Shown: positions 443-55,488, counted from the whole stretch's first letter. The stretch is 62,738 bases of DNA, filler included, from Perkinsus olseni (GCA_013115125.1; 3 parts of 3 records of this genome joined end to end with filler, not necessarily neighbours in it), one strand, 5' to 3'. Made by a program: numbers and translations. The notes: generated from the sequence alone by a model not told the origin.

Positions 443-1916
443 TCGCTAAATAGGCCTTGAAAAGGTGTATATCCCCATTGTCGGGCGACCCTCTTGCTTA
501 TCTCATGTTCCGTCCACGATGCAATACATGTCCCGAGATTATCCTCGTCCTTTGTTGCGAGTCGCAACTTACGACTAGTCCAGAGCGATTCTATGTCTTT
601 TATGTGTTAAGTTGAAAAGTAAAGACTCGTGTCAAAATGGGCAGAGGCTACTGTCCAGAACTCAATGCAGGTCATTGCGATATACAGCGGGCAGTTGAAG
701 CGAACTTCGTGAAGTTGCTCAACTGCAAGCCCCTTCGATCAAAACCTCGTCGATCGGGCGGCCCTATCAACGTCCGTTGCATGACACGGCTAGTTACATT
801 CACCTTGAAATTTGTTCTAGAACGTAAAGTGAGCGTGGATATGTCGGTTGTTGGAGATAATTTGTTTCAGGCTGAATTTTAGTCACTGAAAGCAAACTAG
901 AATGTAGTGTTGCCTTCAGTTACTGAAGTTCAGTGCGAGGATTACCCTCGATGATACAATGACTAAATCACATGGTTATCATAAACTCGTGATGCATGAT
1001 GTGATCACTCTCACTTCCGGTAGGAGGTAACGGGGGATGGAAGAGTTCATTGAATCGGATTTACCGTTCTGCGGGGAGATCACTGATCTCATATCAGTGA
1101 GCTGTGAGGGAGCTGATTGCCCCGCTACGGAACACTCTGCCTACTGTGAGACACGGGAGTTCTTTCCCGGAGTGATTACTAATCACCGATTAGTCATCCA
1201 GATTGTCTGCGCAGCGCTTCACTTCAACATCCTAACGCTACTCCGAGTGGACCTCTCCATTGATGTGCACCGAGGAATTGTACCGGGGTCAACCCGGCGG
1301 GGTGTTCGCTTGACTGACGGACGCTCTAGAAATGACGCTGATCGCATCGCTTCGCATCGGAATTCCTCACTCAGCATCGCTGAGTGACTCAACGCCGTAC
1401 GCCTGCGGCAGTGAGCCTGAGTCTTACTCTCGCAGGCGTACTTTCCAAGAGCGTGCCGACTGACTATGGAGCATCAAAAAGTTACGTAGAATTAATTGGT
1501 CTAGAATAGATCATCTCAATTCCCGCATGATGTGGGCCGCATGGTTCCGCTCGATTTCGATGAGGAACGGCCCCATAGGCTACTTAAGATTGCCTTATAG
1601 TTAAGATAGGCCTCATTGGCCTTATAGTTAGGAATTCCTCACGCTCCTTGAAAATGAAGAGTTATAAGGGGTTGCCCCTTAAGGAACGGCAAGAAGTCCT
1701 CTGTCTAAGGTAAGCCTTAAGGAGCAACTCGTGAAGTTATACGACCAATATCTAGTCAAGAAGTTTTCTCGTCTGAACTCCGAGTCGGAGTCTCCGGCGA
1801 GTTCACAGTTTCTGGCGGCACTATCGGATCCCCTTCTCGCACAATCTGTGCGGTACAAGTTACTGGGAAGTCTTCCCAGTATTCTCAGATTAAGCATAAC
1901 GCAATCCGAGTCGCCC

Positions 1917-1938
1917 CTCAGAGGCTCTGAGTCAGAGC
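1917..1938. repeat. 22-bp double fold-back scar (8-mer CTCAGAGC)
   Basis: CTCAGAG + GCTCTGAG + TCAGAGC = N1-7 + revcomp(N1-8) + N2-8, exact. Confidence 0.8.
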
Positions 1939-2238
1939 CCTTTGAAAATCGCTGTTTGATAGTGACAACGATTCTAAAGCAAGTTCAGGAAAGGCCAATG
2001 GCTAAGGATCTTTTAGTGATACCAAATTACTGTTCCTAGTACTACTACTGCTAACTTAGAAGGCAGCAGAAGCCTGAGCGCATTTCAGGGATCCGATAGG
2101 AGTTCCCCGAAGATCAGGAGACCGAGTCCCAGAAGTTAGATCAGAGTCCACAGAAAGGAGAAGCAGCAGTTTCAGGAGCTTTGGCCCTGCAAATCTACGG
2201 TACTGCATTTTGGCAACCTACCGTAGATGGTTGGCCAC

Positions 2239-2260
2239 CGTGGAGCCTCCACGGTGGAGG
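2239..2260. repeat. 22-bp double fold-back scar (8-mer CGTGGAGG)
   Basis: CGTGGAG + CCTCCACG + GTGGAGG, exact. Confidence 0.8.
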
Positions 2261-3031
2261 CGGGTTGAGCCTACTAGGCTTCTCGGAAGCGCCTTTTCCG
2301 GTTCCAGATTGATCTGGAGATTCGCGGTGTTCACTCATGCATGATGGGCGATGCAACAGCGAAAATTCTCACTGAGAAGCCTGAGGAATTATGTCGAAAA
2401 GGCTCAACCTTCCAGCCTCAATTTGAGGCCCTGAAAGGATTAAGGTAGAGCTCGAAGGGATCGAGGATCTAAGGAGAGCGTGCGAGCTTAACAGAAGTCT
2501 TCTGAAGAGACTCACTGTTACCAACGGACTAGTCGATGCGACGCCTATCGCCACCCGCTTGTCATTGGCCGGCTATCAACGTACCGCATGTTATGTGTGA
2601 GGTTTCTGAGCCTTCGAAAATTTCAGACCGAGCTGAGAACAGGGCAATTCAAGAAGAAGTCTCTGCGCCCGAAAAACGGTGAGTTGCTTGGGTCCGCAGC
2701 TGAGGATTGACTCAGCTCAGTAGACCTATGCCGGTGTTGTATTCGTAGGGTGCAGGAGGAGATGACCGCTGAATATCGCGCTCCGATTCGAAGACTTCGA
2801 ACCAGGGCTCACCAAATGCGAAATTTCTCAGGGAGGTCGGGTTCACGGAGCGATTCCCTAGGAAAGTCCCGGGGTACATTCCACAGTTCCCGTGGGATTC
2901 CCCGGGAATTATTCCCGTAGCACGGGAATTCTGCTCTACTGGGTGAAAGACTCTAACAACTCTCCCACGTGGAGAAGATGGGAGATAATGGAGATTCCCA
3001 GATGGGAAGAACGTACTTCCGATCTCGACCG

Positions 3032-3053
3032 CAGATGAGTCATCTGAGATGAC
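3032..3053. repeat. 22-bp double fold-back scar (8-mer CAGATGAC)
   Basis: CAGATGA + GTCATCTG + AGATGAC, exact. Confidence 0.8.
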
Positions 3054-4690
3054 TTGTGACTAGTAGCTCTCGGTTATATTTATTCGGCCTCGCAGTGAGG
3101 AAAAAAGACTTTCCCCGAGTGAAGGACCACTGCTTGAGCAGGATGTGCTATCATGAACAGTTCATGATGAACTCCTGTGTGCGGCAAACCTTCGCCTTTG
3201 TAGCTCAGGCCGAGCCCCCATACAGACAGACTCTGTCTGACGGTGCGAGATGTAGAGAGGGTAGAGATCGTCATCGTTGGAGATGATCTCCATGATGGAG
3301 ATGGAGACTCCAATGGAGTCTCCATCTCTACCATCTCTCCATCCCTACGTCTCGCTCCGTCATGGAAGTGAGTATGAACGTAATCGAGTAAGTTATACCT
3401 GTGATGCTGGACGGTCCGTGGAATACCCATGGCAGTAGTATTCTGCATGTTACTGAACTCAACGACGGCTCGACATAGTTCTCTTCAACGAAAAGAGTAC
3501 CCAGCCGCAGAAATGCAGGCTGTGCTCGAACTACGTCCTGACCGTCTCCTAACATCCTGGAGCTTCGTGCGCTGTTCCGTGCCTCCCCGTTGCTTGCAGC
3601 AAACCCTTTGTGGTGACTCACCACTGGTGAGCTGTAAGATTGACGTCTGGTCCAGACGAAGTACTCGAAGTATTCCAGGAGTACTTCGACATAGAGGCAG
3701 AAATTCTCCACGGTGATGGCTTCGCGGAACCCCGCAGTCACTCTTGATCCTCGACTAGTCTGTAGACTACACTGTAGCCACGACAGTAGTCTACAGACCG
3801 TGGTACAGACTCCACCGCCTCGGACTGCATCAAAGATTTGAGATCACGACTTGCCGACGAACTGTGACTGCTCGTACCGTAACAAACTGCTCATTTTCTT
3901 AAGCATCAATTTGCGGTTGTGTTTTACGGACATTCTAGGATTACGAACCTCGTCAATAGACGCAGTCGGCGTAAGTTTCCGCGACACCCGGAGGTCGATG
4001 GACCCATCAAGCGAGCTGATGATACTATCATCAGCTCCATGTCACCAATACACTGAGGTTTATTTTCCGAGACTTTCAGGCCGCCGCGCGTTAGTGGGTC
4101 TTCGGAGATGTGTACATTTCGAAAGCGTGAGGTTCACGCTCAGCGTGTACGCACGTTTCACGCGTCGAGCGCTACGGAATTTGATGGAAATGACATTCAG
4201 AAGATAATTCTTCGTGATGAGACGCATCTGTCCGCGCAGTTCCGCTCCACAACCTTCGTCCATCAACGACAAGCGGAATGCAAAATCTAACACAGTCCCA
4301 GCGCGAATAAAGGATCGTAGCACGGGAGTGGGAGCCGAGGCTCTTGAAGTTCCTGAAGTAAAAAACCGAGCCACTCGCCTGAGCTTCTAAGACGGCCGAG
4401 TTCTAGGCTGCTGATGATGACTGCAGAAAGGTGCACGTGAAGAGAGAACCGAAAAATGTGGCCCGAAATGCTGTAAAAGGCTGGATGAAGGACGAAGTGA
4501 CTCACTAGTGAGTTAAGCTGAAGAAAAGAACTGTTCAGACGGCAGAGTCCGTAGAGAAAACCGGACTTCTTCGAATCCTCCAACGCAACAAGGAATTCCG
4601 GGAGGCCAGCAGACACCGCCACACAACGTTAAGGGGCCGAGATCCGTTGAGATAAATTCTCTCAGCGGGTCTGGATCCAAAATCGGGAAG

Positions 4691-4720
4691 AAAATGCATG
4701 CCGTGGGATTCGAACCCGCG
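4691..4720 (-). pseudogene. tRNA 3' fragment (T-arm, acceptor 3' strand, T4 run)
   Basis: Minus strand reads CGCGGGTTCGAATCCCACGGCATGCA-TTTT; no matching 5' acceptor strand or D-arm upstream. Confidence 0.45.
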
Positions 4721-4879
4721 AGCACGCATGATGCGCGCGCCGTGACATTCGTTATCGTCTCGATCCTCTCTCGCGATAATGAATAGCGATTCTGAGGTCA
4801 CTTCAGACGTCTAGAAATTGTTCCAGAATTAATCCTCGTGATATCTGAAACCGCAAGTGTCGTTTGCCTTAGACTTAGT

Positions 4880-7579
4880 ATGTTGCCCTTGGATGTCGAG
4901 GCCGGACCCGAAGATGACTCTCCGTCCCTATTACCATCATACGGCGACAACCACGAGCGGCGGCATGTAGGGCTTATCAACTGGCGGGCTGCAGCAGAGC
5001 GCTACGCGTCGGTAGCGAGCAAATTCGTAGTACTAGTAGGTAGTGTTGTGGTTGTCCTAACCATCGCCATAATAGTGAATTCGCCATTGAGTCTGAGCCG
5101 GGAGGTCAGCTGTACTCGGTCACATGAGATGAGAGGCGACCGATATGCTTGGGTGCCGCTAAGTCTCGCTGATGAGCATTTTGTACTTCGGAACTCTGGT
5201 GCCCGGGAATATCAGTACGAGTTGAAGCAATTTGTCCAAGTCCATGCACGCACCGCCAATGATGAGCATAGCGGCTCAAATCGTACACTGGAAGGCTTGC
5301 TAAGCGAAATTGATGGTACTGTTAATGTTGTACTATTGCTCCACGGTAATCGTGGCACTTATGGTAACTTCGACGAGTTCGCAGCGACTATGTATCGAGA
5401 CTGGTACCCTAAAGGGGTGCTCAATCGCACCGTACTTCTGGCTTTGGATTTTTATGAAGAGCCCAACGCGTTCCATCCTTCCGTTGTGGAGGCGCAGGCT
5501 GAGTTAACTAGGGGCCTTATGGCCGGTGTATGTACCAAAGGCGTCAGGTGTGCATTGGTCGGCCACAGCATGGGAGGGGTCGTGGCGGCCATCGCTGTAT
5601 CGAAGTCCACGGTAGATATTGTCGAGAATGTAGCTTCTTTAGTAACTGTATCAACTCCCTTGAAGACCCACCCTGCCATGCTCGACGTGGGTTGGCACCG
5701 AGTGTACAGTAAAGTCAGCCGAGGTATTCGGGCTGTGCCTGTGGTCAGTGTGACGGGCGGGGCCGCGGACTGGCAGGTCCCTATGGAGGACACCAGAGTG
5801 GCTGGTGCTAATGGATTCCAGTGGGCGCTGATGCCGGCCAGTGATGGGGTCTTCGCCCAAGGAGACCATATAGCTGTTATGTATTCTTACGAAGTCCTCA
5901 CCTACCAAGTGGTGCCTGCCGTAGCCCGGGCACTCGGGTGGCGCTCCGATACAATCATCGGGGCTGATGATGACTTGAAGGAATGGATGCTCAGCATGGA
6001 TCGGCCCGCCAGGAAGTTACCATTGGATCAGATGCTTGACGTACGCGGCGAGATGGTAGTAGAGGTGGAGTCGTCGGGGTCGGGCGGTGTACGGCAGCTG
6101 TGGGATAAAAATCTCCTTATCGATGCTCGAACGAAGGGCGGAGCGGTTCTGGTTCTGCGACGAGAGCGGCCGAACGCCAGGTGCCCTCACGTGAAAGTGG
6201 TGGACTGGGACGTTGGAAGTCATCCGAGGGCCGAAGCCCCCGAACTATGCCAAGGCTGTTCGAGGCTGCTTGTCAACGAGAGCCTCGTTTTTCCAGTGGG
6301 CGCCAAGGATCTCCGGCTCGCCAGAGTCAACAATGGCGGCGCTACGTGGTGCATTTCGCAGCCCATCGGCCCCGACGTCAAGGCGATTCTGGTACCTCCC
6401 GGCCAGGGCTTCGTCATTGGGCTGACCAGTGCTGGTGTGATGGAGTTGAAGTCACGAAGCGGTTATGAGCAGTACGAGATGGGCGTCCGAGTGGACGGGG
6501 ATGTCCCTCATTTCGCCTGCCTGGCTGGTGGCCACAGCATTCTGGCTGCTGCCTCTTCGAGCAACGGCAGGTCTGTGATGGCCCCGTCGCGGCCACTGGG
6601 TGGACGTCGAGAGGAGCCTTCGCGTTCCGACACGCTGGTGGTCATTTCCCCTGTTAAAGATATCGGCCGCGTCTCGGTCGACTATACCACTGCTCGTGTG
6701 CCGACGTTGATGAGGATGCTCCTGTCTGACTGGCCCTACATTATGGGCTCTCTGCAGTTTCTACTGGCCCTGCAGATCATGAGCATACTCATAGGGTCCC
6801 CTTCCTCCATCCCTGCTCCGCAAGGGTTCATAATATCACCATTACCAATACTATGCTATACTCTACTATCTACCTTCATGGTACCGTTGTTATCGTCAAC
6901 TGGGAGCACTCTCTCCCTCATGCTCATGTCCATATTAGCTTTGACCCTGCACAGCGGAGCCTACGCCCTTCTCAACGCCAGTAAGGGTCCCCGAGGGCGC
7001 GCCAGCTTCGACAGGCTCTCCCTTGGGTCATTTTCCTCGACTTCCAAACGAGCTGTAATGAAACTAGCCTTGTTCGTCGCTCTTTATGTGATGTTGCTTC
7101 TGGTGTGCCCGAGTATTTTCGGTCATCTCGCGGCTCTTATGATCGGCTTCCGAGTATGGCGTCAAAGCGCCTGCGAGGAGACCCGCCTGGGGCTGCTACT
7201 CCTGTTACAGTCCTTCACTGTTCGCTCTCTGCAATTGTTATACACAGTGATGGCTATCTTATCGAGGTTCGTTGCTGATAGACCACATGCTATGGTAGGG
7301 GTCAATCCGCTGCTACCGGGCGTGGCGGACTGGTGGGCCGTTCTCGATGGCGCTGCCACGGCCCTGCTGCCGCTAGCGTTAGCCCTGTCTATGTCGGCTA
7401 TGGTCAACAATAATGTAGCGAAGGACGCTGTGCTCCGGCTGTCTAGCAACCTGAATCGACCCCAAGCAGGTCGGGCCTCTATTGGCCTGATGGTCTTATC
7501 GATGGTCATCTCGTTGGTGGTAGGGTCTGGTTTCTGGGCTCTACCATTGTACTATCTGACGCTAGCCTCGCAATGGTAG
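4880..7579 (+). CDS. PGAP1: GPI inositol-deacylase (PGAP1/Bst1-like), intronless
   Basis: N-terminal TM, LLHGNRG, ALDFYEE, lipase nucleophile motif VGHSMGG, TVSTP, GGAADWQVP, DH motif, then several C-terminal TM helices. First ATG is at 4880 (the ORF track starts at GTG 4838). Confidence 0.85.
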   Translation: MLPLDVEAGPEDDSPSLLPSYGDNHERRHVGLINWRAAAERYASVASKFVVLVGSVVVVLTIAIIVNSPLSLSREVSCTRSHEMRGDRYAWVPLSLADEHFVLRNSGAREYQYELKQFVQVHARTANDEHSGSNRTLEGLLSEIDGTVNVVLLLHGNRGTYGNFDEFAATMYRDWYPKGVLNRTVLLALDFYEEPNAFHPSVVEAQAELTRGLMAGVCTKGVRCALVGHSMGGVVAAIAVSKSTVDIVENVASLVTVSTPLKTHPAMLDVGWHRVYSKVSRGIRAVPVVSVTGGAADWQVPMEDTRVAGANGFQWALMPASDGVFAQGDHIAVMYSYEVLTYQVVPAVARALGWRSDTIIGADDDLKEWMLSMDRPARKLPLDQMLDVRGEMVVEVESSGSGGVRQLWDKNLLIDARTKGGAVLVLRRERPNARCPHVKVVDWDVGSHPRAEAPELCQGCSRLLVNESLVFPVGAKDLRLARVNNGGATWCISQPIGPDVKAILVPPGQGFVIGLTSAGVMELKSRSGYEQYEMGVRVDGDVPHFACLAGGHSILAAASSSNGRSVMAPSRPLGGRREEPSRSDTLVVISPVKDIGRVSVDYTTARVPTLMRMLLSDWPYIMGSLQFLLALQIMSILIGSPSSIPAPQGFIISPLPILCYTLLSTFMVPLLSSTGSTLSLMLMSILALTLHSGAYALLNASKGPRGRASFDRLSLGSFSSTSKRAVMKLALFVALYVMLLLVCPSIFGHLAALMIGFRVWRQSACEETRLGLLLLLQSFTVRSLQLLYTVMAILSRFVADRPHAMVGVNPLLPGVADWWAVLDGAATALLPLALALSMSAMVNNNVAKDAVLRLSSNLNRPQAGRASIGLMVLSMVISLVVGSGFWALPLYYLTLASQW

Positions 7580-9284
7580 TAAGGGTGGATGCAGCAGCGC
7601 TTAGTTGATGGTTTCCTTCTTTCAGTATGTTGCTGGCCTTCTTTATACTGTTGGCGCTTCGTCTGTCTAAGCCGCCCTCAAGCTCGGATATCTTCCAAAC
7701 CACCGTCACCATCGGAAGTATCATTAACGCAGATGGACGACAGTCAAGGCGTCGCGTACCCTTCTCGAAGGATGGCAGCGGGACTCGGGATGCTGGAAAT
7801 GATAGCCGAACGCAGCGGAGCGGAGGCACAGCTGAGGACTGGCAACCTCTCATGCAGTACTAGGGGGGCGATGTCGTCTGTCGCACGGATAGCCGCGTCT
7901 GGTGGTATGAATATTCGACGTGTGGACCTTGAGGTAGATCGCTGAGAATCTCCTGCCCCCCGCAGAATACCCGCAGAATTGTGGCTGCTAACTGAATGCC
8001 AATGCCAGCGAACGGGCGCATGCGCGCCCCTCTACAGTGTTGTCGATTTCGATGGTCCAAAAGTGGGAAAGCGCATGACTTATGCCGTACGCATGATTTC
8101 CGCATCACGCAGTGAGGCTGAGTAGAGGTCTAATCGACGCAGATGATTTCTTGCACAATAACGATCGCCTCCTCACTTCTGTGGTCCTCACTGCCCTGTA
8201 GTTCTATGGGAGTGACGAGTATGTTTTGTCTCAGAGTTAGTCTGAGTCCGAGGTCCTCAGCGTCCACAGCTAGCTCTACCACTGGCTCTGATATTAGTGC
8301 CGGTGGTAGTAGTGGCAGCGGCGAGGACGACTACCCTCCTGCCAAGACGCGTCGCCGTCACCGACCCGCGTCGCGGGGAGACCGACTCTCACCGGCGAGG
8401 CCGAGGTGCGGGCGGGAAGGCAGCAGCAGCCGTCGGAGGTGGGCGCGGCAGGCCTCTCCTCAACGCGGGCAAGTCTAGACGGGCTCGGTCGGATTGCTAT
8501 CATCGTCCTCGTCTTTGTCGTTCTTGCATTTCCTTCTGTAAATTACTATTAATATTATTGCAACCCCGTCAGCGAAGCTGTAGGGGTGTAAGATGACTTG
8601 AAAGTAGCCAACTTGAAGTACTATTATTACAACTACTAATACCTGCCCACTCACCAAGATCTGCGTTGCCAGTGCCCCAATCACGGTGCTTCTTACGGAA
8701 AGCACGGCGTGAACGCGGTGCCGTTGTGAGGATTGATAGAAGCTCGCTTTCTCAGGAAAGTCGCTGGCTGTGCTGGGGAGACTGCGCCCTAGTTTTTCAT
8801 TGCACAGCGGCCCACCTCCAGTGTCTATGTCTGGCATTGCTCGTGGCAGACGTACTTACTTGGTTCCGGCTCTGTGCCGCTCGTAGTGCTCATGCTTCTC
8901 AGTTGCTTTCCTGTTATGCTCTTGTTTGCCAGCTGCTGCAAGAATTGTGTGGAAGTCGGGAGTATGGCGCTCGAGGGCGTTAGGGTTGCCAGAAGTTACC
9001 AGCGCAGTCCACGGCAGTTGCCATTATTTTCTATCTGAGTTGGTCTTTGCTGTTCGCGTAGCACTAGCTTGCTTTCCCTCGGCTGCCCCGTCCCGCAAGA
9101 AATTTTCCGGCCGTCGACGGTCCATGAAGGCCTAGGGTAGCACAACCGCCAGGCGGATAGAAGAAAAACCAGAGTACTTTCAGTTATGCTTTGTGACTGC
9201 CGAAGTATGGGTAGAGGACATTCAAGCTAGGGAGAAAGTACTGGCACACAACTACTCAGCACACAGTCCACATCCAGGCTCCAA

Positions 9285-9590
9285 TTGCGTTCTGTGGTGG
9301 GTTCGCAGGAGTACCTTCCTCGCGGTCCGCAGTCGGCCCTTCTTTCTCTCTCTCGTCTAAGGGAGTCCACCAGCACGATCGCAAATTCGACGTCCTCGCC
9401 CACCCTCCTGCCCTCGGGTGACCCGAGCGAGCCTCGGCATGCTGAGGTGACTGGAGCCTCGGTCATCATTATGGGAGTTGCTGTCATCTTATCCGCGGGC
9501 TGCATCTATGCGGTATTACGGATGGGCCGAGCTGGGAGGCAAGAGGCTGCTCCCACAGCTGTAGTGAAAAATCTTGCGCGTGCGGTTTGA
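9285..9590 (+). CDS. Probable last exon of a small single-pass membrane protein
   Basis: S/T-rich segment, hydrophobic helix VIIMGVAVILSAGCIYAVL, then basic residues; frame open from about 9230; 5' exons unresolved. Confidence 0.35.
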   Translation: MRSVVGSQEYLPRGPQSALLSLSRLRESTSTIANSTSSPTLLPSGDPSEPRHAEVTGASVIIMGVAVILSAGCIYAVLRMGRAGRQEAAPTAVVKNLARAV

Positions 9591-9624
9591 GGGTGTATCT
9601 TTCTAGGGCACGTCAGATGGCGCG

Positions 9625-10760
9625 ATGCTGGTGGCGTCTTGTGCGTCATGTGGGAGAGAGCAGTACATGCCGCGAATAGAAACGGCGGTGGCCTTCACTT
9701 GTTTCGAGTGTCGAAGGGCCAATCCGGTCCCATGGGTAGTCAGGGTAGCTGCAGACCGTGCAGGGAAAGGGCGTGGGTTCGATTCCCACAGGTTGCACCT
9801 CATCCTGTTGAGCAGACGGGGCCTTTGATGGAATATGAATTCACTCGGGTTAACAACACGTTCTTCAGAGTGAGCGGCCAGCGAGAGCACAACGCCTCCG
9901 AAAATCCAATCATTGTAAGATCGTCCTTCTCGGCGCAGTTTCGCTAGGCCCCCCGCGTCCTCAGATCACGCCGTTGGCTCCTATCATGGTGGGTCGGCCG
10001 GCGGAGGAGGAGAATGTGGATGTACCCTCCTGCACCATCTGCATGGTAGACTATCGTGAGGGTGGGGAAAAATGGAAATTTTCAGAGGAATTCTCGGAAG
10101 TGAGAGCGTATCTTTTCTCGGAAGCTCTGTGCCTTCCTAGGACGTAGGGATCTCAAGGTTGCAATGAAGGGCTTCGTAGCAGTTGATGCTGTTGAAGGAC
10201 GCTAGAGGCTTCCGGCTGTAGGCTGCACAGATTCGGACGTAGAATGCGTGGATCTGCGTAGCGGTAATCGCCACTGCAGGAAACAGACCGCCTGCGTGGA
10301 GGAAGTGCCCCTCATTTTTCGTGGCTCATGAGTAGCGCAAGGTGTGGTATTGCATCCTGTTGTGCAGTGACGGTGATTTCACCACATTCAAGCTCAGAGT
10401 AACCGTGCTTCTACTTCAGGACGCTCCCGGCGACTCAGTCGTCCTCCCCTGCGCCCACGGCGGCTTCTGTATTACCTGTATATCGGCTATAAAGCAATCA
10501 GGTGGGCAATCTCACGCCTGAGGCTTCGGGACTCTCCTTCAGGACGTCCGTACTGTCCTCAATGCCGGAAGTTGATAGACAGGGCAGTGCGGCTGGAGGA
10601 GATCAGCGATCGAGTTGCAAAGTGAGTATGTTTGAATGCCCCTGGAGTATTCTATTTATCCCACCCGCTCAACCTTGCACTTGGAAACCAACCTGACAGA
10701 TCGCCATTATCTGGTACACAGTTTTCGTTTACAATTCTCGCGCCTACGGTTTGCCTTTAG
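9625..10760 (+). CDS. RING-HC (C3HC4) E3 ubiquitin ligase-like protein with N-terminal CxxC...CxxC, spliced
   Basis: Spliced reading CASC...CFEC ... DVPSCTICM|DAPGDSVVLPCAHGGFCITC...|RPYCPQCRKLI; GT-AG introns at about 9736-9791, 10046-10419 and 10622-10699; stop TAG at 10758-10760. Confidence 0.8.
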
Positions 10761-11927
10761 GGGCGTCGAAATACGGTTGCCACCTCGACTGTAGCCGGGC
10801 ATGACTTCCATGTATCATCATCCGTTGTTGTTACCTCGTTCCAGTGTTCTGTTGAGTCCATTAGGGCAGGGGAGGACTTGGGTGTTCTGAGCGGGCGCTT
10901 CATTGTGGGCCCTGCGGGGGTCTCTGAAAGATTCGTTCGGAAAGTAGTGGTATTAGTTAGTAACTTTTAGTGATTAGTCGACTGAACGCGTGTGCCACAA
11001 AGAAAGGGCACGCCTGAGAGGCGACCTCGCGTAGGGTCCGGCCATAATTGTACTGGGAAGGTTGAGGCTTCGCCCTCTCTCTGGCATTAAGCGAGGGACG
11101 CGCGCTGAAGAAGGTTGGAGCTCTTCGCGCCTCTCTCGTGACGTGATTTCGCCATGTTACGGTATTATAAATTATATACTCCGATTTCAATATTTTCCAA
11201 TAATAACTATTGATTGGTAATTATTTCCGGAGAATATTGATTATTCGAGACGTGTAGCTGGTCCATCCCGGACTGTCCCTGTTGTAAGGTATAGATTTTC
11301 CTCATTGCTCGTTGCTCATGACTACTGCTGCTGCAGACGGTGATCCCCACAGTAGTGCTGCGTCGAGCAGCACTAAGAGGTCGGTCAGCAGTATGGCTAC
11401 CGCTCCTGATGTCGCTCCCTTGACTAAGCTATATGACCTGCAGAAAAGGAGGCAGCGAGCTAGGTAATAATAGGGGATAGATGGGCGTTCTACATCACAC
11501 AGTGATACCTGCTGGACTGGGCATGGCCCATAGCATGGGAATATCATGTTTCTCGAGCCTTGTCTCACGTGCTCGTCAGCTAGTCGCGGATGGATCGTTA
11601 CCACTTACTGTGTCTGACCATCTACTACCCTCTGTACGAGCGTACATCCGCCTAGGGGACGTGCGCGCCTCGAGTAACGGTATATTCTTGCCACTGCGCT
11701 TCATACATAGCATCCTTCCGAGTGTGCTTTCCTACACCATCACGATCCTCAGAATCTTCTTTGACCTTCCGTACCACTTTTCTACCTACTTCGCTCGTGT
11801 TACCTGTTTGCAGATTCATCCGGGAACGCTTCGAATTTACCTCGGGTAGAATGTCTTTGACTGGGAAGTTCGTGATTTCTTATTTGTTGTGAAATTGTGT
11901 CCTCGGCTTGTCAGAGAAAGTCGTCGC

Positions 11928-12607
11928 ATGATGGCAGCCTCCAGCTACCCTAGTACCGCAACAAGCCCTTACTACCCGGCCAGCGAGTATGGTGGTGGTA
12001 GCAGCTACAGCGTGATTAGCTATCCCCGGGGAGCGACTCCGGAGGGGTCCGCCATCACCTCACGATCGTCCTATGCTCCTGTAGTGCTCCCCCACTTATC
12101 CCTACAGAAGGCTATGTAATCTGGTCAGGTTCTTACACCTAGTCCCACATCCCGCTCGGAAATGCGCAGCATGTAGGTTGGGGGTCTGGGAATCTTAGGT
12201 TGAAGCATGGAAGATACGCAATAGCATACACTCTGACCAATGATGTACAGGTATTCTCCAGAGTATTCCGGTCCGGTAATGCTACCGAGGGTTGGAGTCC
12301 CTCTGCCTCCTGAGATTTCTGGCCGATACTACTATGGCATGACAGAGGTAGTAAAGATACTCTCGCACGCACAAGATTTTCCCTCGTCGTGCATCATCGC
12401 CTCTCGTCTTCGATGTATGCTATTTATACTGGTCACCCTCCTCAGGAGCTCGCTGCCCCTCCGCCGCCCCAGAACGTGAAAGCCTTCGCCCCACCCTATA
12501 GAGAGACTGTGGTCGCCGGCATTACTGATGGCATTGCTGAGGAGCCGGAGCCATCGCGTGTACCACCAAGCATCGCAAAGGAGTTATCAGCTCCTCGAAA
12601 ATGGTGA
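11928..12607 (+). CDS. Hypothetical S/Y/P-rich protein, spliced
   Basis: Consecutive ORF pieces of coding-like composition (MMAASSYP..., YSPEYSGPVMLP..., ELAAPPPPQ...RKW*) flanked by intron-like segments; no family recognised. Confidence 0.5.
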
Positions 12608-16307: not shown

Positions 16308-16329
16308 CCTCTGACTCAGAGGCTCTGAG
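16308..16329. repeat. 22-bp double fold-back scar (8-mer CCTCTGAG)
   Basis: CCTCTGA + CTCAGAGG + CTCTGAG, exact. Confidence 0.8.
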
Positions 16330-20175: not shown

Positions 20176-20888
20176 TGAGAACTGACAATGATAATGGCAA
20201 TGATGTGCTGCGGATGTCTACACCTCTGTACCCTGAGGGGCAGCTTCCTCGACCCGTTTGCGACTCGCCTATGACTCGCTGAAAGGATTTTGATTTCCTC
20301 AAGCATTTAAAGATGAAAGAAGATGCCAAAAAGGACAAGGTACCTTCGTCGTCATCATCATAAGCTTCTGGCGCTCTAGGACGACAGAGGAGAACTGAAC
20401 ATACTGATTCAGCATTGCTTCCACTGAGGACAAAATTTCAAAGGGCTGTGACACAGTCACTGTGCGTCATCAACGGGGTGCGTAAATGACTGCGTTGCCA
20501 CTACCATGAAAAAGACAAGCGCTAGAGTATGACTGCCATAGGGCGTTGCCTACGCAGTATAGCTGCTAAAATGCGCACGACGGCGAAGTTGATCATTGCT
20601 ATTGCCCAATCACTGCAAGTTGCATGATCAGGTTCGGACACAGTGCGTCGCGATAATACCCCCACTGCAAGCGATGTATTGTTTGCTATTCTTGCTCAGT
20701 TGGCTATCATTTCCTCTGTTAACTTACACTCTGGGTGGTGATGTTATATCAATGGTAAGAGGATCTGTGGTATGGAATGGATCGAGAAGTGACCGAACTA
20801 TACCATTCAGAAGTCTATTTGGCGGATAAGGCCGTTGCCTATATGGGGGTCGAGGATATCTATACCATTCAGAAGTCTATTTGGCGGA

Positions 20889-36354: not shown

Positions 36355-38027
36355 TTACGAAGTTGCTGCTACAGGTTGATGCTGCTGTTGGTGGTGATAC
36401 ATCTTCAACTTATCATCATCGTGATCACCCTCCTGAATGGTTGCATACTGCATTGTCCTCTCTTTCTGCTGTTCATCAGACTGCTGCTCAGATTGAGCAG
36501 GTTGCCGGGCCACAAGTACTGAGCAGTGCGCTTTATGGGCAATGTAGAAGCTGAGACAAGTACAAGTGAGAGTAGCGAAGATGATAGAATGTGAGTATTA
36601 CGGGAAGCTGTTGGGATGGAATAAATGTGAATGCCCACCATAACCGGTAGCTATTATATCGACATTCTCCGATTCGGCGTACTCACACATAGCCGCTGCT
36701 GGTAACGGGCCTGAACAAAAGCAGCAGCAAGTAGTGAGTAGTACGATACAACAAGGCTGTTGTGGTTGTTAGACAGCATGATGAACACAGGGAATGAAGA
36801 CTCACTAGCTTGTAAGACTTTAGATGATAATATCAAATCATCAGTCTTATGCTCATCCATAACCTCTTTAAGATCACCCATGAGGATGTCTTCTATGCTA
36901 GCCGTACCCTCCTCGTGTGGTGGGGCAACAACGTGGATCTACAGTAACGTATGGGTGATGATAGATCCAGACCAATACCGCCATCGCTACTAGTACTACC
37001 GCATTGCCACCAGCAGAGAAGTCCGGTGTAGTCACTAACTGAACTTCATCACCTGGTCGACATAGACGCATAGCAGCACGCAAGGCTTCTACTGAATCCT
37101 CCCTAACAACAACAACACATGGTATTAGCATAATATCGCACTGATAATAGGCATCTCTTATTACCAGTTATTGCTCCCAAAGCATACCAATACCTTCATT
37201 GGACGATTGTTATGCATTCCTGGTAGGACCGCTTTCGGATCACACTTGATAGCTGACATCATAAAGCATGTGATAATGTACACTGGAATACCTCAACCTA
37301 CTGGGCTCAGCAAACTCAGCAACGTCACCGCTGTCCTCGGGTTCGGATATCTCACTATCTTCTGTATTGGGGACCGCCGTAGTACTAGTGGTAGTAGAAT
37401 TAGAGGTAGTAGACTCATTCTCACGTACGACAAGGACATCACACGGAGACTCTCTTACAACATACTCCACTAGTGATGCCAACTTCAGGTAATGTGTCTG
37501 ATGGTAATGATAGTAGATCATTATACGGCACAATTTGTGCCGCACAAACGACTACTACTACTACTACCGATCCCCCTGATCCAATAGCAACAAGGTCTGG
37601 TTCAATCTCGCCACAGTATTCCATGAGGGTATCTGAGAGGCGACGGGGTGATGATCACCCTCTGATGATCATGATGTTGTCACTATTACTACCTCTGATA
37701 TCCTTAGTCGCTTCAGCGACATCGAATGTAGTATCCAATTGAGGGTAGTCAGTAGCTATATTGTTAAAACGCCTTTTATAATCATTAGACTCAGTGCTAC
37801 TCTCCTGCTTAGTAGGTACATGATAACCTGACAGCCTGAACATACTCACAACATGACACATCAACTATCATTACTACCATTAATTGATATGGTATCTGGA
37901 TGTCGATTCCAGGATGATACCAATCCAAAGATACTACTCAATGCAACCTCTGATGCACATGGATTAGCCCCGCCTAGACATACCACAATACGGTTTATGT
38001 AAGGTGATCGATACCTGGACTCGACTC

Positions 38028-41914: not shown

Positions 41915-41987
41915 ACTTTCTATATTTCTACTTGTGTTGAGATGACCGGGACGCCACAACACTCTACGAACGATGAGGGCAACAACA
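41915..41987 (+). repeat. 5' LTR (3' portion only)
   Basis: 73 bp identical to the end of the 3' LTR, ending GGGCAACAACA. Confidence 0.9.
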
Positions 41988-47152: not shown

Positions 47153-47174
47153 TTTGTGATGTTGATACACGGTC

Positions 47175-47184: not shown

Positions 47185-47389
47185 TGTTGATGCCCAATTG
47201 TTGTGACCGTGACGTTGTGCTAAGACTGTCCCCCTTTCGTAGCTTATTGTTGGCACAAAGCTTGTCTCCCCGCAGCTGTCGGAGTAGACTATGTTTGTAT
47301 TGTATGTTCTATAGTTACTTTCTATATTTCTACTTGTGTTGAGATGACCGGGACGCCACAACACTCTACGAACGATGAGGGCAACAACA
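47185..47389 (+). repeat. 3' LTR, 205 bp
   Basis: TGTTGATGCCC...GGGCAACAACA terminal inverted repeat (10/11 match). Confidence 0.9.
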
Positions 47390-49224: not shown

Positions 49225-49997
49225 AGCGTGCGTCCTTCCCCCCTGGAAACATCGGTCCTCAGGGTGGGAGGGAGGGTTGAAACTTTTCCTAGTATAACAC
49301 AACCCAGTTGGGCCTCCGCCCCTCGTACGCGTGCTCTTTTCTTGTGTACCACGTGCTGGCCGTTTGAAAGCGCGCGCCCATCAACAGCGCGTATGATAAC
49401 ACAAGCTTCCGTTGTGTTTCTCATACATAGGACATGTACACCCAATCGCGGGGATTCTTATGGCTCCTGCTTTGCCGAGCACCCACAGCTGCCCCGTCTA
49501 GAGATCGCGACTGCCGAGATGAGCTCGCCACATAATACCGTAGGTGCGGTGTAGCTGTGTATACAATATGTGGATCACATTCCTGAGCATTAGCCAGGGA
49601 AGCTGGCTGGGGTTCGAGTCGCGTAGAGCAAGTTTTGCTATCATCGGTCTATATCATCGGGTTTCCAGGAACTACACGAGTGGCTGGTATTACAAGCAGG
49701 CGTAGAGCGACTCGAATCTATGCGTTCGTCAGCAAATCGACGAGAATAGATGGCAGAAGTGTCACTCATTTCGAGGGGGGGGGGGCGCAAAGTAAAGCTG
49801 GGCGAGCCGCAGTAACCAATCATTGAGACTCTGAAGAATGGAGCTTGGGCAAGAAGCCAGGCGCCACTAACGAGTCGTTAGTAACGATATCAACGCAACA
49901 CAGACTAGGGCGAGAAACTTACTGAACGCCAACCCAGGTTCGATGCGAGAACGGCAAGCGTAATATAAGCGAAAGGCAAGGAGCGGAAGGGTTCGGG

Positions 49998-51309: not shown

Positions 51310-51696
51310 AATAGAGTATAGCGATAAAATCAGAGTATATTATACGAATCGATAAGCGCCTTCCAAAGGTGGTCAAGTCATTCTGATAGTCTCGGGCACA
51401 GACGAAAAATCGAAAATTCAAATTCGAATAAAGGATCGGTTACAGTGGGAGGGGTTAGTTGTCCCTCACGGCATCATGAATGGAATGTGACATGTGGAGA
51501 AGAGTCGGAGGACTAACATCCGACATTTAATGCGTGGTAACGGATCTTTTCCATCCCGACAGAATTTGATTTGCATGTCCGATTTTTCGTCTGTGCTCGA
51601 GAGTACCAAAATGACTTGACCACCATCGGAAAGCCCTTAGCGAGTTGTATATGATACTCATTATGAGTAACTCATATTTCATCCCTATACTCTATT
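51310..51696. mobile_element. Fold-back / MITE-like element with long imperfect inverted arms
   Basis: 51310 to about 51442 aligns to the reverse complement of about 51537-51696 (e.g. GGTGGTCAAGTCATT/AATGACTTGACCACC, GCACAGACGAAAAATCG/CGATTTTTCGTCTGTGC); no TSD identified. Confidence 0.65.
51655..51676. repeat. 22-bp double fold-back scar (8-mer TACTCATA)
   Basis: TACTCAT + TATGAGTA + ACTCATA, exact; the 14 extra nt are absent from the partner inverted arm. Confidence 0.85.
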
Positions 51697-51785
51697 CCGT
51701 GGACTTATTGAAAGAAGTCGGTCTTTTTGAAACACCCTTACGATATATAAAAAACGTAGAGTAAGCTAGTTAGTCTGCCCGGCAG

Positions 51786-51834
51786 ACTCTATCGATGCTA
51801 GACGGCAGACTCTGCCGTCTAGCATCGATAGAGT
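51786..51834. repeat. Perfect 24-bp-arm palindrome with 1-nt centre
   Basis: ACTCTATCGATGCTAGACGGCAGA-C-TCTGCCGTCTAGCATCGATAGAGT. Confidence 0.95.
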
Positions 51835-53407
51835 TATGTCTCAGAGTATCTCATTGGTGCTTTGGTATTCACGGTACTAACACAACTACATAATGGACAT
51901 CAGCACATCCTCGTGTGAAGGTAATTCTGTAACGTCATAGGTCGACCCTTGGTAAGGGAGCGATCAGGCGCCTGTCGGAGACCCGGTGCCGTCTCCATGC
52001 GCAGAAGTTGCTGCAGACTAGCTACACTCTCGTCCACTACACGCACTGCTCGAAGTGTCTAAGGATAGCCATAATGGTATCACTTAACATTCTCACGTCA
52101 GGGTTACGCGCCGCTGCCTCAACCAAATCGGCGCACTCCTTCTTCATTGACTTGTAGTAGCCCAATATCTATACCACATTAATAGCCACAGTTTCGGACT
52201 CACAGAATTAGGATACCCCTGATCCGTGCTGGCCGTCTCTCGAGGCATTATCGTCTTGAGCGTGTCCAATACAGGCAGCCTGTACGGCCGAGGATCCCAT
52301 CTCTCCCGCTCAACTGCTCTAATAATTAGAGTCAATTAGAGTCTAATTGCTTCTCAGGGCTGATAAACAATGCCCCAATTACGCTTATAGACTCACCGGC
52401 ATCTTCTTCATCTCATTTGCGAACATCTTTCGACGCCAAACAGACTTTAGCATGCCCCTCTGCTCGGACGCTGCTGGAGGCTCCACTGCCATCTGCTATG
52501 TACTCCGCGGTATAGCTCCCATCCCCTACCGGTGGGGCCTTCAGATCAGGGCAGGAACTTCGATGTAAGACGACCTTCTTACCCTTCTTGTGGAGGTGCC
52601 GAACTCTTCTACCTCTGTTCTGCTCGAGCCTTCTAGATTCTTCCAAGGCAATCTGGGAGAGTAAAACACGTTAGCTGTTCTTATCGTCGAATGAAAAGGA
52701 TATGATTCGAGAGAATATTGGACTGGCCTACGAGCCCCAGAGCATCGAGTCGCTACACTCCCGAGAGGCTCACCTTCATAGATGCCAATTGAGCTGTTAT
52801 ATCCTCATCCTGTGCTGTGACCCCGGATAAGATACTCAACCATTAAAAGGCACCAGTACCCTTGTGAAGCCTCTCTGGTAGACTACTGGACATATAAACT
52901 AACGAGTGCTAATATTATCAACTCAAATCTACGGCATAACGAGGATAACATGTTAGGCATCATTATTCTGATGAGTGCGTGCTTTTATCAGACTAGAAGT
53001 CAACTGCCGACGAAGGTCGGAGCCCGTCATGTTACCACTCTAAAGAGATACTACAATACAGATACAACCATCTCTTCACTTGCTCCTCACTCGGTAGACA
53101 CCAGGCCGTGGGCGTCTAGAACCGCCGAGAACTCGGCCTCGACCTCGGGAGTAGGACAGAGCGAGTGAACGATGGTGCGTACGTCAGCGGAGAGACCCGG
53201 AGACAACGATGACTAAAACACGATGTATACCCAGACTGAGAAGTATCGTGGAACCGGTTTACCCCAAGTGCCGGGCGACCGACACGAAACTGTTAAAAGA
53301 AAGGTCATACCGCTATTACAACACTACACTATTGATTAACAGAAATGGCTTGGTTTAGACCCATCATGCGGGAGGGCTTTAAAATGAAAAGTTATGAAAA
53401 TATTTGA

Positions 53408-53672
53408 ATAATTGATAATATTGATATATTGATGATATTGNNNNNNNNNNNNNNNNNNNNNNNNNNNNNNNNNNNNNNNNNNNNNNNNNNNNNNNNNNNN
53501 NNNNNNNNNNNNNNNNNNNNNNNNNNNNNNNNNNNNNNTGATAATATTGATGATATTGATAATATTGATATATTGATGATATTGATAATATTGATGATAT
53601 TGATAATATTGATATATTGATGATATTGATAATATTGATGATATTGATAATATTGATGATATCGATAGTATT
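53408..53672 (+). repeat. AT-rich 9-bp tandem repeat (ATATTGATA/ATATTGATG) spanning a 98-N gap (53441-53538)
   Basis: Alternating ATATTGATA/ATATTGATG units on both sides of the gap. Confidence 0.9.
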
Positions 53673-53748
53673 GGAACATATTGAAATGTGATAATTTCAT
53701 AAAAAATCAAAAATTCATCCCGAGTACATCGACTTTAGGGTCTCTCAT

Positions 53749-54825
53749 TCACTGTTTAGCTGCAGAGAAACCTACTTTGTTGCTCTGCAGTTGAAAGTTG
53801 AAGTACTTACCCATGAATGCGCTCGCTCCCAAGACGCATTCATCATCGGCAACAAAAGCTAAGCGTAGTATACAAGTTCCCCCATTGTACTTGCTGACCA
53901 GACTTGTTGCGGGAATTTCAAGGGGAATTGCCTCTCCCTTCAACCCTTTTATGCTGAAGGTCATAGATGGCAGGTACTTGGCATCGTCGCAGGATATAAG
54001 TAGTTTCACTCTCTCTTGTTGGATCGAGACCTTCTTCTGCCCCGCTATTTGTAAGAAGTCGATAAGCTGCTTCTTGAACTTCTCGTTGATGTAGATGTGA
54101 CTGGCACCGGTGTCGAATGCAGCAGACGCTGTCAAGGGTATGCGGTACTTTGGATCGCTCCCAATAGCCAAGCCCATCAGTTGCACAAACTGCTCATCCT
54201 TGTTAACAATTTGGACGTACTTGAGGGGAGCAACGTACTTTCCAGGATCCTCACCACCGAGGATGAGCTCGCCGGTCGAGTCCTCCCCTCCTTTGAAGTA
54301 CAGCGAGAAGGAGTTGCTGCTTATAACTTTCTTGGACACCAGTTGCTCGACGATAGATGTATACGGTTGAGTTGCCGGCGTTGATGCTCTCAAGCCGAGC
54401 GACGCCCATATTCTTTCCGAGTCGCGGTTGAAGCCGGCTACCATGCCGAAGTTAGCAGATGGGACAATCGCAGAACCAAACTCCAGCTTGCCAGAGTGCG
54501 GGAAGAGCCAAACCTTAGAGCCGTCACCAAAAGTAAAAGCCTTGGTTGGGCCTTCCGTACAAGGGGGGGCGCACTCATAACAACCGAAGACGAGGTTAGC
54601 GCAGACGCCGAATTCCTCTTCGTACCAGTGCTTCCATACAACAAATAGATAGGTTGCTCCCGTATCTACTAGAGCATAGATATCTTGCCCGTCGGCCTTG
54701 AAATGAGCTAGGGGTAGGGGATAGATATCATTCACGGCGGTCTTCTTGAAGGACATATCCATTCTTACTAGCTTATCGCCTGTGACGAGCCCAATCATAA
54801 CCGGCATCAACAGTTTCCACATCAT
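53749..54825 (-). CDS. Secreted pepsin-like aspartyl protease (family A1), intronless
   Basis: Signal peptide; two catalytic motifs LVDTGAT and AFDTGAS; FSLYF, GELILGG and C-terminal VLGASAF...NKVGFS. Confidence 0.92.
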   Translation of the reverse strand: MMWKLLMPVMIGLVTGDKLVRMDMSFKKTAVNDIYPLPLAHFKADGQDIYALVDTGATYLFVVWKHWYEEEFGVCANLVFGCYECAPPCTEGPTKAFTFGDGSKVWLFPHSGKLEFGSAIVPSANFGMVAGFNRDSERIWASLGLRASTPATQPYTSIVEQLVSKKVISSNSFSLYFKGGEDSTGELILGGEDPGKYVAPLKYVQIVNKDEQFVQLMGLAIGSDPKYRIPLTASAAFDTGASHIYINEKFKKQLIDFLQIAGQKKVSIQQERVKLLISCDDAKYLPSMTFSIKGLKGEAIPLEIPATSLVSKYNGGTCILRLAFVADDECVLGASAFMGKYFNFQLQSNKVGFSAAKQ

Positions 54826-55466
54826 CGATGGCAGAATAAATCGAAGATAAGAAATCTGTTAGAAACATGAATGACTTACGAAGCATCCCCGAAAAGCGTC
54901 GTGAACATCTTCGCTCCTGTTGTACGATTTCTCGTCACCATTTCTTGAGAGTAAGCCAGGATTTACTATCAGTAACTCTAGCGTTACTAACTGTTGCGAA
55001 AATGATGACGATCCCGGCCTATAGTGCTAATGTTCTAAATTATATAGCTGATGTGCAACTCGACATTTGTAGCCGAAGTGAGGCAAAGAAAGAATAATCT
55101 CAGATGCTTGGCCTGCTTTTTTACGTTAGCAAATCGATCGCGTCACACCTGTGCAGGCCAACTCGCACGTGTGAAATTGCGCCACTAGTCACAGACATGA
55201 GACGATATCATAGCCCTTCCTAGGGGCGATGAAAACCAAAGACAATGGGGAGGGGTTGGTACATAGAACATAAAGACCATGCCCATCGAGCGCAGTCGAT
55301 ACTGTGCCCACATAGGTAAACTAGGGCATATCCGACGGGCGCACGAGGAGACAGAAAAATAAACAATTGGCGTGAAACCGTGCCGTGTTTCTGCTCACAG
55401 GGGTCGGCCATGATCAACGCAATAGCACAAGATGGAGCCAGAGGGAACTCTTGTCTTAGTTCATCA

Positions 55467-55488
55467 GTGGGCCCGGCCCACTGGGCCG
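55467..55488. repeat. 22-bp double fold-back scar (8-mer GTGGGCCG)
   Basis: GTGGGCC + CGGCCCAC + TGGGCCG, exact. Confidence 0.8.

Follow-up and report, generated by a model that had tools for sequence, protein, structure and literature searches.

A dense 22-bp fold-back signature in Perkinsus olseni, probably left by excision of an hAT-like transposon

A 62.7-kb stretch of DNA from the shellfish parasite Perkinsus olseni, made up of three contigs of a short-contig assembly joined by spacers and here called the window, carries many 22-bp units in which a local 8-mer, X, is folded back on itself. These units are probably, with odds of nearly four in five, the donor-site excision scars of a cut-and-paste hAT-like transposon. 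Such an element would make 8-bp target duplications and leave flank hairpins offset by one base, and the breaks would be repaired mostly by annealing of inverted copies of the duplication. The scans for scars, occupied sites and transposases have the 62.7-kb window as their scope. Two sets of read-derived contigs are compared with it, one from runs X1 and X5 (two studies) and one from runs X7 and X8, which are further samples under the same organism label and represent a diverged strain.

Each unit has the form X1-7 + revcomp(X1-8) + X2-8. A mechanical search of the window finds 15 exact copies versus 0.0 in 200 block shuffles, and the scan was repeated with 100 shuffles. Scars with one mismatch number eight (0.01 expected) and those with two mismatches six (0.10 expected), one of which, at 37520, is a shifted self-overlap of the scar at 37527, leaving five. 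The scar pattern is confirmed as real and is stronger than first described. All seven exact copies in the preliminary description (1917, 2239, 3032, 16308, 49998, 51655 and 55467) are exact on re-checking, and eight more (3152, 3610, 37527, 56290, 56573, 59600, 60014 and 61292) were absent from it. Four of its five near-exact copies (914, 1777, 2896 and 49867) have one mismatch, but the fifth, at 3765, has three and is doubtful. The variant it placed at 51773 differs from a canonical scar by two mismatches, and its estimate of about 2e-4 exact matches by chance is arithmetically correct. The scars are clustered, with 15 of 28 lying within 554-3631. Random insertion would not predict such crowding, which counts against the excision reading.

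Canonical scars, exact:
1917..1938, X = CTCAGAGC; in runs X7 and X8, 14 letters absent at 1918 and a single 8-mer left
2239..2260, X = CGTGGAGG; also in runs X7 and X8, where 1 nt is deleted and 1 nt inserted
3032..3053, X = CAGATGAC
3152..3173, X = CATGAACT
3610..3631, X = GTGGTGAG; 14 letters missing at 3611 in two contigs each of runs X7 and X8
16308..16329, X = CCTCTGAG
37527..37548, X = GGCACAAA
49998..50019, X = GAGCGGAG
51655..51676, X = TACTCATA; adjoins the right end of inverted repeat 51333-51659
55467..55488, X = GTGGGCCG
56290..56311, X = ACTCAACT; in the upstream part of a decayed Ty3/gypsy element
56573..56594, X = CCGAGGAT; immediately ahead of gag-RT ORF 56597-59335
59600..59621, X = TCACACGT; frameshift in retroelement pol, spanning ORF 114 to 232 aa with 14 nt skipped
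60014..60035, X = CCTGTTGG; frameshift in retroelement pol, spanning ORF 169 to 251 aa with 14 nt skipped
61292..61313, X = GACCAAGG; frameshift in the integrase part of retroelement pol, spanning ORF 386 to 548 aa with 14 nt skipped
Scars with one mismatch:
554..575
914..935
1076..1097
1172..1193
1777..1798; a contig of runs X7 and X8 spans 1441-2280 with no gap at the site
2415..2436
2896..2917
49867..49888
Scars with two mismatches:
1283..1304
2780..2801
3224..3245
20444..20465

The length of the repeated unit is sharply defined. With one-base offsets, observed and expected copies are 2 and 1.0 at k=5, 1 and 0.04 at k=6, 1 and 0.0 at k=7, and 15 and 0.0 at k=8, with none in the window at k=9-14. 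Six alternative offset pairs at k=8 (0/0, 2/2, 0/1, 1/0, 1/2 and 2/1) also give no copies in the window. The length peak at k=8 that the preliminary description had suggested looking for is therefore very sharp and restricted to one-base offsets. Palindromes centred on one base with arms of at least 7 nt number 61 in the window (4.5 expected), while even palindromes with spacer 0 number 7 (3.8 expected). Template switching during replication or repair, by snap-back synthesis at quasi-palindromes and with no transposon involved, is able to make inverted-then-direct triplications, and a window rich in odd palindromes would suit it. However, this process predicts broad lengths and junction offsets, and neither variable length nor variable junction position is found. 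It also leaves unexplained why both centres are complements of the first and last bases of the 8-mer, even in spaced variants, and is hardly credible as the source of the scars.

Two known transposition systems are rejected. P elements make 8-bp duplications, and their staggered cuts leave element-end sequence in footprints; the scars have no constant sequence, and the local 8-mer accounts for all 22 positions. In V(D)J coding joints, P nucleotides arise when hairpin-capped ends are opened off the tip to give inverted end copies, a feature shared with the route proposed for the scars. RAG and Transib, however, make 5-bp duplications and hairpins without a one-base offset, unlike the 8 bp and one-base offset seen here. 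There is no excess at k=5 with one-base offsets (2 versus 1.0) or with offsets 0/0 (0 versus 0.07).

The excision model accounts for the canonical unit in four steps. Insertion would duplicate an 8-bp target, X, leaving the element flanked by two copies. At excision, by chemistry known for hAT elements, the transposase would nick each flank one base in. The 3'-OH so released would attack the opposite strand, capping both chromosome ends with hairpins whose tips lie on the complements of the eighth base of X (left) and its first base (right). The host would then open or unfold each hairpin 8 nt or more away from its tip. Each end would be left with a 3' tail that holds X in inverted form, giving ...X1-7 + revcomp(X1-8)... 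on the left and ...revcomp(X1-8) + X2-8... on the right. These tails could anneal at their common revcomp(X), the longest homology on offer, and after clipping of unmatched tails and filling of gaps the product would be X1-7 + revcomp(X1-8) + X2-8, a net addition of 14 nt. The transposase family (hAT-like) and the enzymes that open the hairpins are what we infer, along with annealing, either mediated by microhomology or similar to single-strand annealing, as the repair pathway in place of classical end joining. An 8-bp duplication, as expected of an hAT footprint, is indicated by the peak at k=8 only and by empty alleles with a single 8-mer. Hairpins formed by a one-base nick are indicated by the offsets, the palindrome centres and the variant footprints.

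In rarer footprints, the two extended ends are joined in other ways. Three non-canonical footprints and several candidate one-sided footprints are found in the window:

51773..51834, non-canonical footprint, X = GTCTGCCG; X1-7 + revcomp(X) on the left, then 24 nt of the right flank as an inverted copy, the centre and X2-8
52317..52348, non-canonical footprint, X = CTCTAATT; two inverted X copies retained with 2 nt between, centres 17 apart
61615..61642, non-canonical footprint, X = CTCTACCT; out-of-register join between the two inverted copies, centres 13 apart
4013..4037, candidate one-sided footprint; single one-base-centred palindrome with 12-nt arms
Centres 168, 1871, 3285-3313, 3651, 55511 and 61606, further one-sided candidates; single one-base-centred palindromes

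The footprint at 51773..51834, with palindrome centres at 51780 and 51810 (30 apart), can be read as two extensions joined on a 3-nt overlap. All three non-canonical footprints fit two flank hairpins centred on complements of the eighth and first bases of X. Two-centre footprints with exact duplication consistency occur 15 times at spacing 7 and once each at spacings 13, 17 and 30, with none in the window at any other spacing from 1 to 80 and 0.0 in 50 shuffles. The repair, initially called very uniform, is mostly so, since the canonical product makes up 15 of these 18 footprints, but three depart from it. One-base-centred palindromes outside the listed scars have 20 centres, against about 4.5 expected for all 61.

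Comparison between strains reveals scarred and empty alleles of the same loci, as the preliminary description had proposed to look for. Allele states in runs X7 and X8 come from the 12 of 144 indels listed. Among these, exactly 14 letters are absent at two positions, 1918 and 3611, with full depth at both, and this absence restores a single 8-mer at scars 1917 and 3610. A scar is thus an empty site plus 14 nt, and the net gain of 14 nt given in the preliminary description is borne out by the empty alleles. Polymorphism also occurs in the other direction, at a site that is empty in the window:

3575..3582, empty site, 8-mer GTTCCGTG; runs X7 and X8 carry a footprint 35 nt longer, with inverted copies of both flanks

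At window positions 3575-3577, runs X7 and X8 have 32 additional letters and a 3-nt back-step, and the insert reads as inverted flank copies centred on complements of the eighth and first bases of the 8-mer. The scars are therefore strain-polymorphic in both directions. Two alleles taken alone would fit gain or loss of 14 nt equally, the direction not being separable, and slippage on a 6-nt direct repeat within the scar could be an alternative route to the deletion.

A sequencing or assembly artefact might be suspected in joined contigs of a short-contig assembly. However, from 480 to 11123 the X1 and X5 contigs show 0 differences from the window, scars included, so the scars are unchanged in independent read-derived contigs from two studies. 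The diverged strain of runs X7 and X8 also has scar 2239 and scar 1777, the latter common to both strains because the contig over 1441-2280 shows no gap there, yet lacks others by exactly 14 nt. The chance that the scars are artefacts is practically negligible.

The scars avoid intact coding sequence. Thirteen ORFs of at least 200 aa cover 36% of the window, and none holds a scar wholly inside, in keeping with the earlier remark that intact coding sequences are free of them. Three scars, at 59600, 60014 and 61292, frameshift the pol of a dead Ty3/gypsy element. Skipping 14 nt at each fuses pol ORFs, giving one of 314 aa at 59412-60381 and one of 548 aa at 60794-62451. When every 14-nt deletion across 59340-62460 is used as a frame control, the gains at these sites fall in the top 2.9%, 8.2% and 2.4%, respectively. 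The two Ty3/gypsy elements of the window are too divergent for frameshift mapping by tblastn (best E=7e-4), and ORF continuity with the positional control was therefore used for the frame test. The region 554-3765 is ruled out as a scar-riddled gene; no long ORF opens when all scars there are skipped.

A search of the window for the transposon itself yields no candidate. A Pfam scan of 115 window ORFs (12, plus 103 from a set of 161 stop-to-stop ORFs at least 90 aa long) detects retroelement and host domains only, with no cut-and-paste transposase and hence none of the hAT type, which has a DDE core and a C-terminal dimerisation domain. Among 16,424 8-mer pairs in the window, none forms the duplication around an element bounded by terminal inverted repeats, and the terminal-repeat matches are only low-complexity or internal to an inverted repeat. 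Thus, alongside about 30 scars, the 62.7 kb show not one occupied site, and no resident short-terminal-inverted-repeat element of the kind expected for an hAT family. Neither the inverted repeat at 51333-51659 nor that at 55516-55773 has a flanking duplication, and both are rejected as resident elements. A 572-aa ORF (38889-40604) gives chance-level matches only in a PDB sequence search.

Because the search of the window yields no transposon, assignment to hAT rests on geometry, namely the 8-bp duplication and the one-base offset. The hairpin-and-annealing reading of the preliminary description otherwise gains support from the k=8 peak, the empty alleles, the frame test and the non-canonical footprints. 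Ac-type elements prefer targets of the form nTnnnnAn. The echo of this preference reported earlier (T2 or A7 in 10 of 13 8-mers) is weaker than claimed, at 8 of 15 exact 8-mers versus 44% by chance. Of 56 half-sites, 22 have T at position 2 (uncorrected p=0.013), and of 51, 23 have C at position 1 (uncorrected p=0.0014); the target logo is only weakly hAT-like.

The same footprint mechanism could belong to another superfamily with flank hairpins or 8-bp duplications, whether Mutator-like, Merlin-like or undescribed, but this is distinctly unlikely. Mutator-like elements (MULEs) make duplications of 8-10 bp, typically 9, and the window has none at k=9 and k=10, although a MULE restricted to 8 bp is still compatible. 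In the available text, Muta1, a MULE, forms hairpins on its flanks and duplicates 8 or 9 bp, but its excision in yeast is more than 90% precise and does not leave fold-back scars (PMC5499845). Merlin relatives with 8-9 bp duplications occur in Perkinsus marinus without recognisable ends, but hairpin chemistry is not described for Merlin in the portion available (PMC8101967). The lack of a hAT gene among the scanned window ORFs would suit such families, whereas the one-base offset agrees with the Ac/Ds description, so far as the excerpts give it (PMC5873905, PMC1978519).

A host-adopted (domesticated) transposase carrying out programmed or semi-programmed removal, with a dedicated pathway making the scar uniform, is very unlikely. 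It would fit a product that is the same in 15 of 18 cases, the very high scar density and 62.7 kb with no resident element. However, strains differ in their scars in both directions, as they would for germline mutations. The scars are also untidy: they lie in dead elements and non-coding DNA, and they frameshift coding sequence. The present data hold no sign of two genome forms in Perkinsus.

Several known systems share features with the scars. Zhou et al. (work cited in PMC1978519 and PMC5499845) reportedly found in 2004 that the Hermes transposase nicks one nucleotide into the flank and forms a hairpin on the flanking DNA. A nick of this type would yield one-base-centred palindromes exactly as in the Perkinsus window; scans of the window, however, reveal no Hermes-like protein or element. 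Ac/Ds footprints in plants, Saccharomyces and Candida share flank hairpins, complement-centred palindromic insertions and microhomology joining, according to the sections available (PMC5873905, PMC1978519). The centre of each such palindrome is complementary to the base adjoining the element; in yeast the arms reach 20 nt, microhomology is frequent, and in Candida there are 28 footprint types among 128 events with palindromes of 3 nt or less (same sources). These are heterogeneous footprints at reporter loci, whereas Perkinsus has one dominant product with a whole inverted 8-mer, natural and dense. In a related alveolate lineage, Amoebophrya, introner-type non-canonical introns likewise have short inverted repeats (8-20 nt) and border direct repeats, with no family-specific repeat in the text available (PMC7789003). 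Those are transcribed introns of variable length, while Perkinsus scars avoid intact coding sequence, and a link between the two is speculation.

Hairpin and microhomology chemistry is already known; what may be new is the uniform, dense natural signature. The literature yielded no account of one so uniform and dense, in a comparison that stops short of primary yeast and Arabidopsis footprint data (Yu 2004, Lazarow 2012, Huefner 2011), and nothing on such scars in work on Perkinsus transposons, palindromes and end-joining genes.

If the excision reading is true, each scar is the fossil of one transposon visit, and jumps that left no element behind could be counted, mapped and dated by decay and strain polymorphism. 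The near-uniform product would report how hairpin-capped double-strand breaks are repaired, by long hairpin opening and 8-nt annealing rather than variable end joining, and this repair mode would bear on the outcomes of genome editing in Perkinsus. Since they frameshift coding sequence and vary between strains, the scars are mutagenic and potential markers, and annotation pipelines blind to 14-nt insertions may miscall genes. A more tentative proposal, on balance unlikely, is that classical end joining is weak or absent in Perkinsus, and perhaps in other early-branching dinoflagellate relatives, so that nearly every hairpin-capped break is resolved through unfolding, followed by annealing on the inverted 8-nt copy of the target, and each excision becomes a datable 14-nt insertion. 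Were this so, about 30 scars per 63 kb would extrapolate to tens of thousands, a leading source of indels, and the scars would also be a source of inverted-plus-direct-repeat structures like those at Amoebophrya non-canonical introns.

The canonical scar is a 22-mer that joins the first seven bases of a local 8-mer, the reverse complement of all eight and then bases 2 to 8, for a net gain of 14 nt. The whole window was scanned mechanically for the general pattern X(1..k-a)+revcomp(X)+X(1+b..k), where X is a local k-mer. At k=8 with a=b=1 there are 15 exact matches, against 0.0 in 200 shuffles, and all seven copies listed as exact in the preliminary description are exact on recheck. Single matches occur at k=6 and at k=7 and none at k=9-14, so the peak at k=8 that had been predicted is found at the scale of this window. 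Six other offset combinations at k=8 return no match in the window, with the same result when the scan is repeated. Under template switching without any transposon, lengths and offsets should vary, and no such spread is seen.

Imperfect copies are also in excess. The window holds eight scars with one mismatch (0.01 expected) and six with two (0.10 expected), one of these six being a shifted self-overlap. Exact, one-mismatch and two-mismatch copies, with the self-overlap excluded, therefore give 28 canonical scars. Four of five copies previously called near-exact have one mismatch; the fifth, at 3765, has three and is doubtful. Two independent views of the window agree with the scar signal. At a distance of 14, direct 6-mer repeats occur 38 times (12.3 expected). 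Palindromes with 7-nt arms occur 61 times when they have one central base (4.5 expected) and 7 times when they have none (3.8 expected). The 28 scars account for 41 of the 61 palindrome centres, and the other 20 lie elsewhere in the window.

Contigs from four public sequencing runs were aligned over 480-20479. Two of them, X1 and X5, originate from two different studies, may represent the source strain, and have zero differences from the window over 480-11123. The scars therefore exist in reads, and a sequencing or assembly artefact, which the contigs of other runs contradict, is excluded. Runs X7 and X8 have the same organism label but derive from other samples; their divergence from the window sequence is about 4% within the PGAP1 gene and 7% across non-coding DNA. 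The scar states in these runs come from 12 listed indels out of 144 between runs and window. At 1918 and 3611, X7 and X8 are exactly 14 letters shorter, at full depth. When scars 1917 and 3610 are stripped of those letters, precisely the single 8-mer remains, which is the empty allele that the preliminary description had proposed to look for in other strains. On the contig covering 1441-2280, whose gaps are fully listed, scar 1777 is common to X7/X8 and the window, and scar 2239 is present in X7/X8 with 1-nt changes. The reverse polymorphism is found at window positions 3575-3577, where X7 and X8 have 32 extra letters and a 3-nt back-step. Compared with the window, the insert holds an inverted copy of each flank, both built around a central C. 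The C of the left copy is the complement of the final base of the local 8-mer, and that of the right copy is the complement of its initial base. The insert is a differently shaped footprint, and the window has an empty site there.

Footprints of other shapes were sought in the window as pairs of one-base-centred palindromes with arms of 3 or more, in which one 8-mer is specified jointly by both centres, the 7 nt ahead of the first and the 7 nt following the second. Fifteen have their centres 7 apart, and one each has spacings of 13, 17 and 30; the remaining spacings between 1 and 80 yield none, and 50 shuffles give 0.0. The three variants, as read from the sequence, are as follows.

Variant footprints in the window
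51773: right flank inverted over 24 nt; the two extensions may be taken to join through 3 overlapping nt
52317: both inverted 8-mers retained, 2 nt apart
61615: inverted 8-mers joined out of register

On this reading, all three are different ways of joining one and the same pair of extended ends. Among the 18 exact two-centre footprints, 15 are therefore canonical, and the repair earlier described as very uniform is so for these 15, with the other 3 joined otherwise. Other odd palindromes stand alone, with arms as long as 15, such as those at 4025, 1871 and 3313, and could be one-sided products. At 3285-3328 there are three overlapping one-base-centred palindromes with arms of 7, 8 and 15, a compound that may represent a scar struck again by a second insertion and excision.

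Perkinsus olseni is an alveolate parasitic on molluscs. The window joins contigs at 1-20888, 20989-41814 and 41915-62738; the spacers between them (20889-20988 and 41815-41914) are artificial, each 44 N, a 12-base all-frame stop motif and 44 N, and no feature should be followed across them. A further scaffold gap of 98 N lies at 53441-53538. Host genes recognized with Pfam are a PGAP1-like hydrolase, two tandem nucleoside transporters and an aspartyl protease, and the ORF at 4796-7579 has 98% identity to P. olseni GPI inositol deacylase. Pfam also identifies two Ty3/gypsy-like retroelements, one intact and one decayed.

Genes, retroelements and fused reading frames
30704-32026 and 33271-34716 (minus strand): tandem equilibrative nucleoside transporter genes, 78% DNA identity
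41867-47152: intact Ty3/gypsy-type polyprotein ORF, 1761 aa, with a CCCH zinc finger
about 56250-62450: decayed Ty3/gypsy-like element (Pfam)
59412-60381: fused ORF of 314 aa in the decayed element after 14-nt skips
60794-62451: fused ORF of 548 aa in the decayed element after 14-nt skips

A perfectly identical 73-bp direct repeat (41915-41987 and 47317-47389) flanks the intact ORF. It resembles a portion of the LTRs and suggests that the insertion is young; the third contig begins within the left copy. In the decayed element, the scars at 59600, 60014 and 61292 act as frameshifts: split ORFs fuse when their 14 nt are skipped. Compared with a 14-nt deletion at every position in 59340-62460, the ORF gains at these sites rank in the top 2.9%, 8.2% and 2.4%, and further lesions persist after the skips. 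Thirteen ORFs of at least 200 aa cover 36% of the window and none wholly contains a scar, as had been claimed for intact coding sequences. Skipping the scars in 554-3765 reveals no long ORF there; this region is therefore simply non-coding.

Scars are concentrated upstream of the PGAP1-like gene, where 15 of the 28 lie within 3.1 kb of non-coding DNA (554-3631) that also carries many indels between strains. Local re-insertion or a favoured target region could produce this hotspot. Other repeats occur in the window. Two fold-backs, at 51333-51659 (91-bp arms, 82% identity) and 55516-55773 (perfect 46-48-bp arms), are not bordered by a target duplication. Scar 51655 begins exactly at the end of the first, and the second adjoins a 134-bp repeat with another copy at 32146-32279. 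A repeat of ~70 bp at 18918-18987 is found on many contigs in all four runs, with a summed depth ~5x that of its neighbours.

The element that best fits the scars is hAT-like, which is short of proof. Pfam scanning of 115 window ORFs detects no transposase domain, and no pair of terminal inverted repeats with a duplication was found in the window. Programmed excision by a host-adopted transposase is a remote possibility that nothing requires. The suggested echo of the hAT target preference, T2 or A7, is weak, as is the logo: it appears in 8 of 15 exact 8-mers against 44% by chance. With the 28 scars symmetrised, C occupies position 1 in 23 of 51 half-sites (p=0.0014, uncorrected) and T occupies position 2 in 22 of 56 (p=0.013, uncorrected). 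Mutator-like elements, according to passages of PMC5499845, also form flank hairpins, but they make duplications of 8-10 bp and their excision in yeast is mostly precise. For P. marinus, a section of PMC8101967 records Merlin relics. Dada elements in this species make 6-7-bp duplications. Amoebophrya, a related parasite, has non-canonical introns with 8-20-nt inverted and 3-5-nt direct repeats and no family-specific sequence, as described in part of PMC7789003. The parallel to hairpin-derived footprints is a loose structural one, and a link to introns would be speculative.

The scar geometry follows from a path of four steps. A target of 8 bp would be duplicated, and each flank would be nicked one base in to form a hairpin. 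Both hairpins would then be opened 8 nt or more from the tip, and the shared inverted 8-mers would anneal, with flaps removed and gaps filled. The geometry, the gain of 14 nt, the polymorphism between strains and the variant footprints are observed; we infer the family of the enzyme, the nuclease that opens the hairpins and the pathway of annealing. The biochemistry of Hermes was reportedly treated by Zhou et al. 2004, which PMC1978519 cites. Passages of PMC5873905 and PMC1978519 describe the first two steps for hAT elements, and Ac/Ds footprints as palindromes centred on the complement of the element-adjacent base, with cleavage at the 5' flanking nucleotide, arms of up to 20 nt in yeast and microhomology at most joints. 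The hairpin and microhomology model is already known from the literature. Searches of full-text literature turned up no account of a fold-back scar that spans the full duplication, is uniform and forms a dense natural signature of a genome, and nothing of the kind for Perkinsus; the same product may be among the events of primary yeast and Arabidopsis deep-sequencing papers. A literature search on whether Perkinsus lacks Ku or ligase IV yielded no information. The two tails share no homology longer than these 8 nt, and this would account for the uniform scars if the cell favours annealing over blunt end joining.
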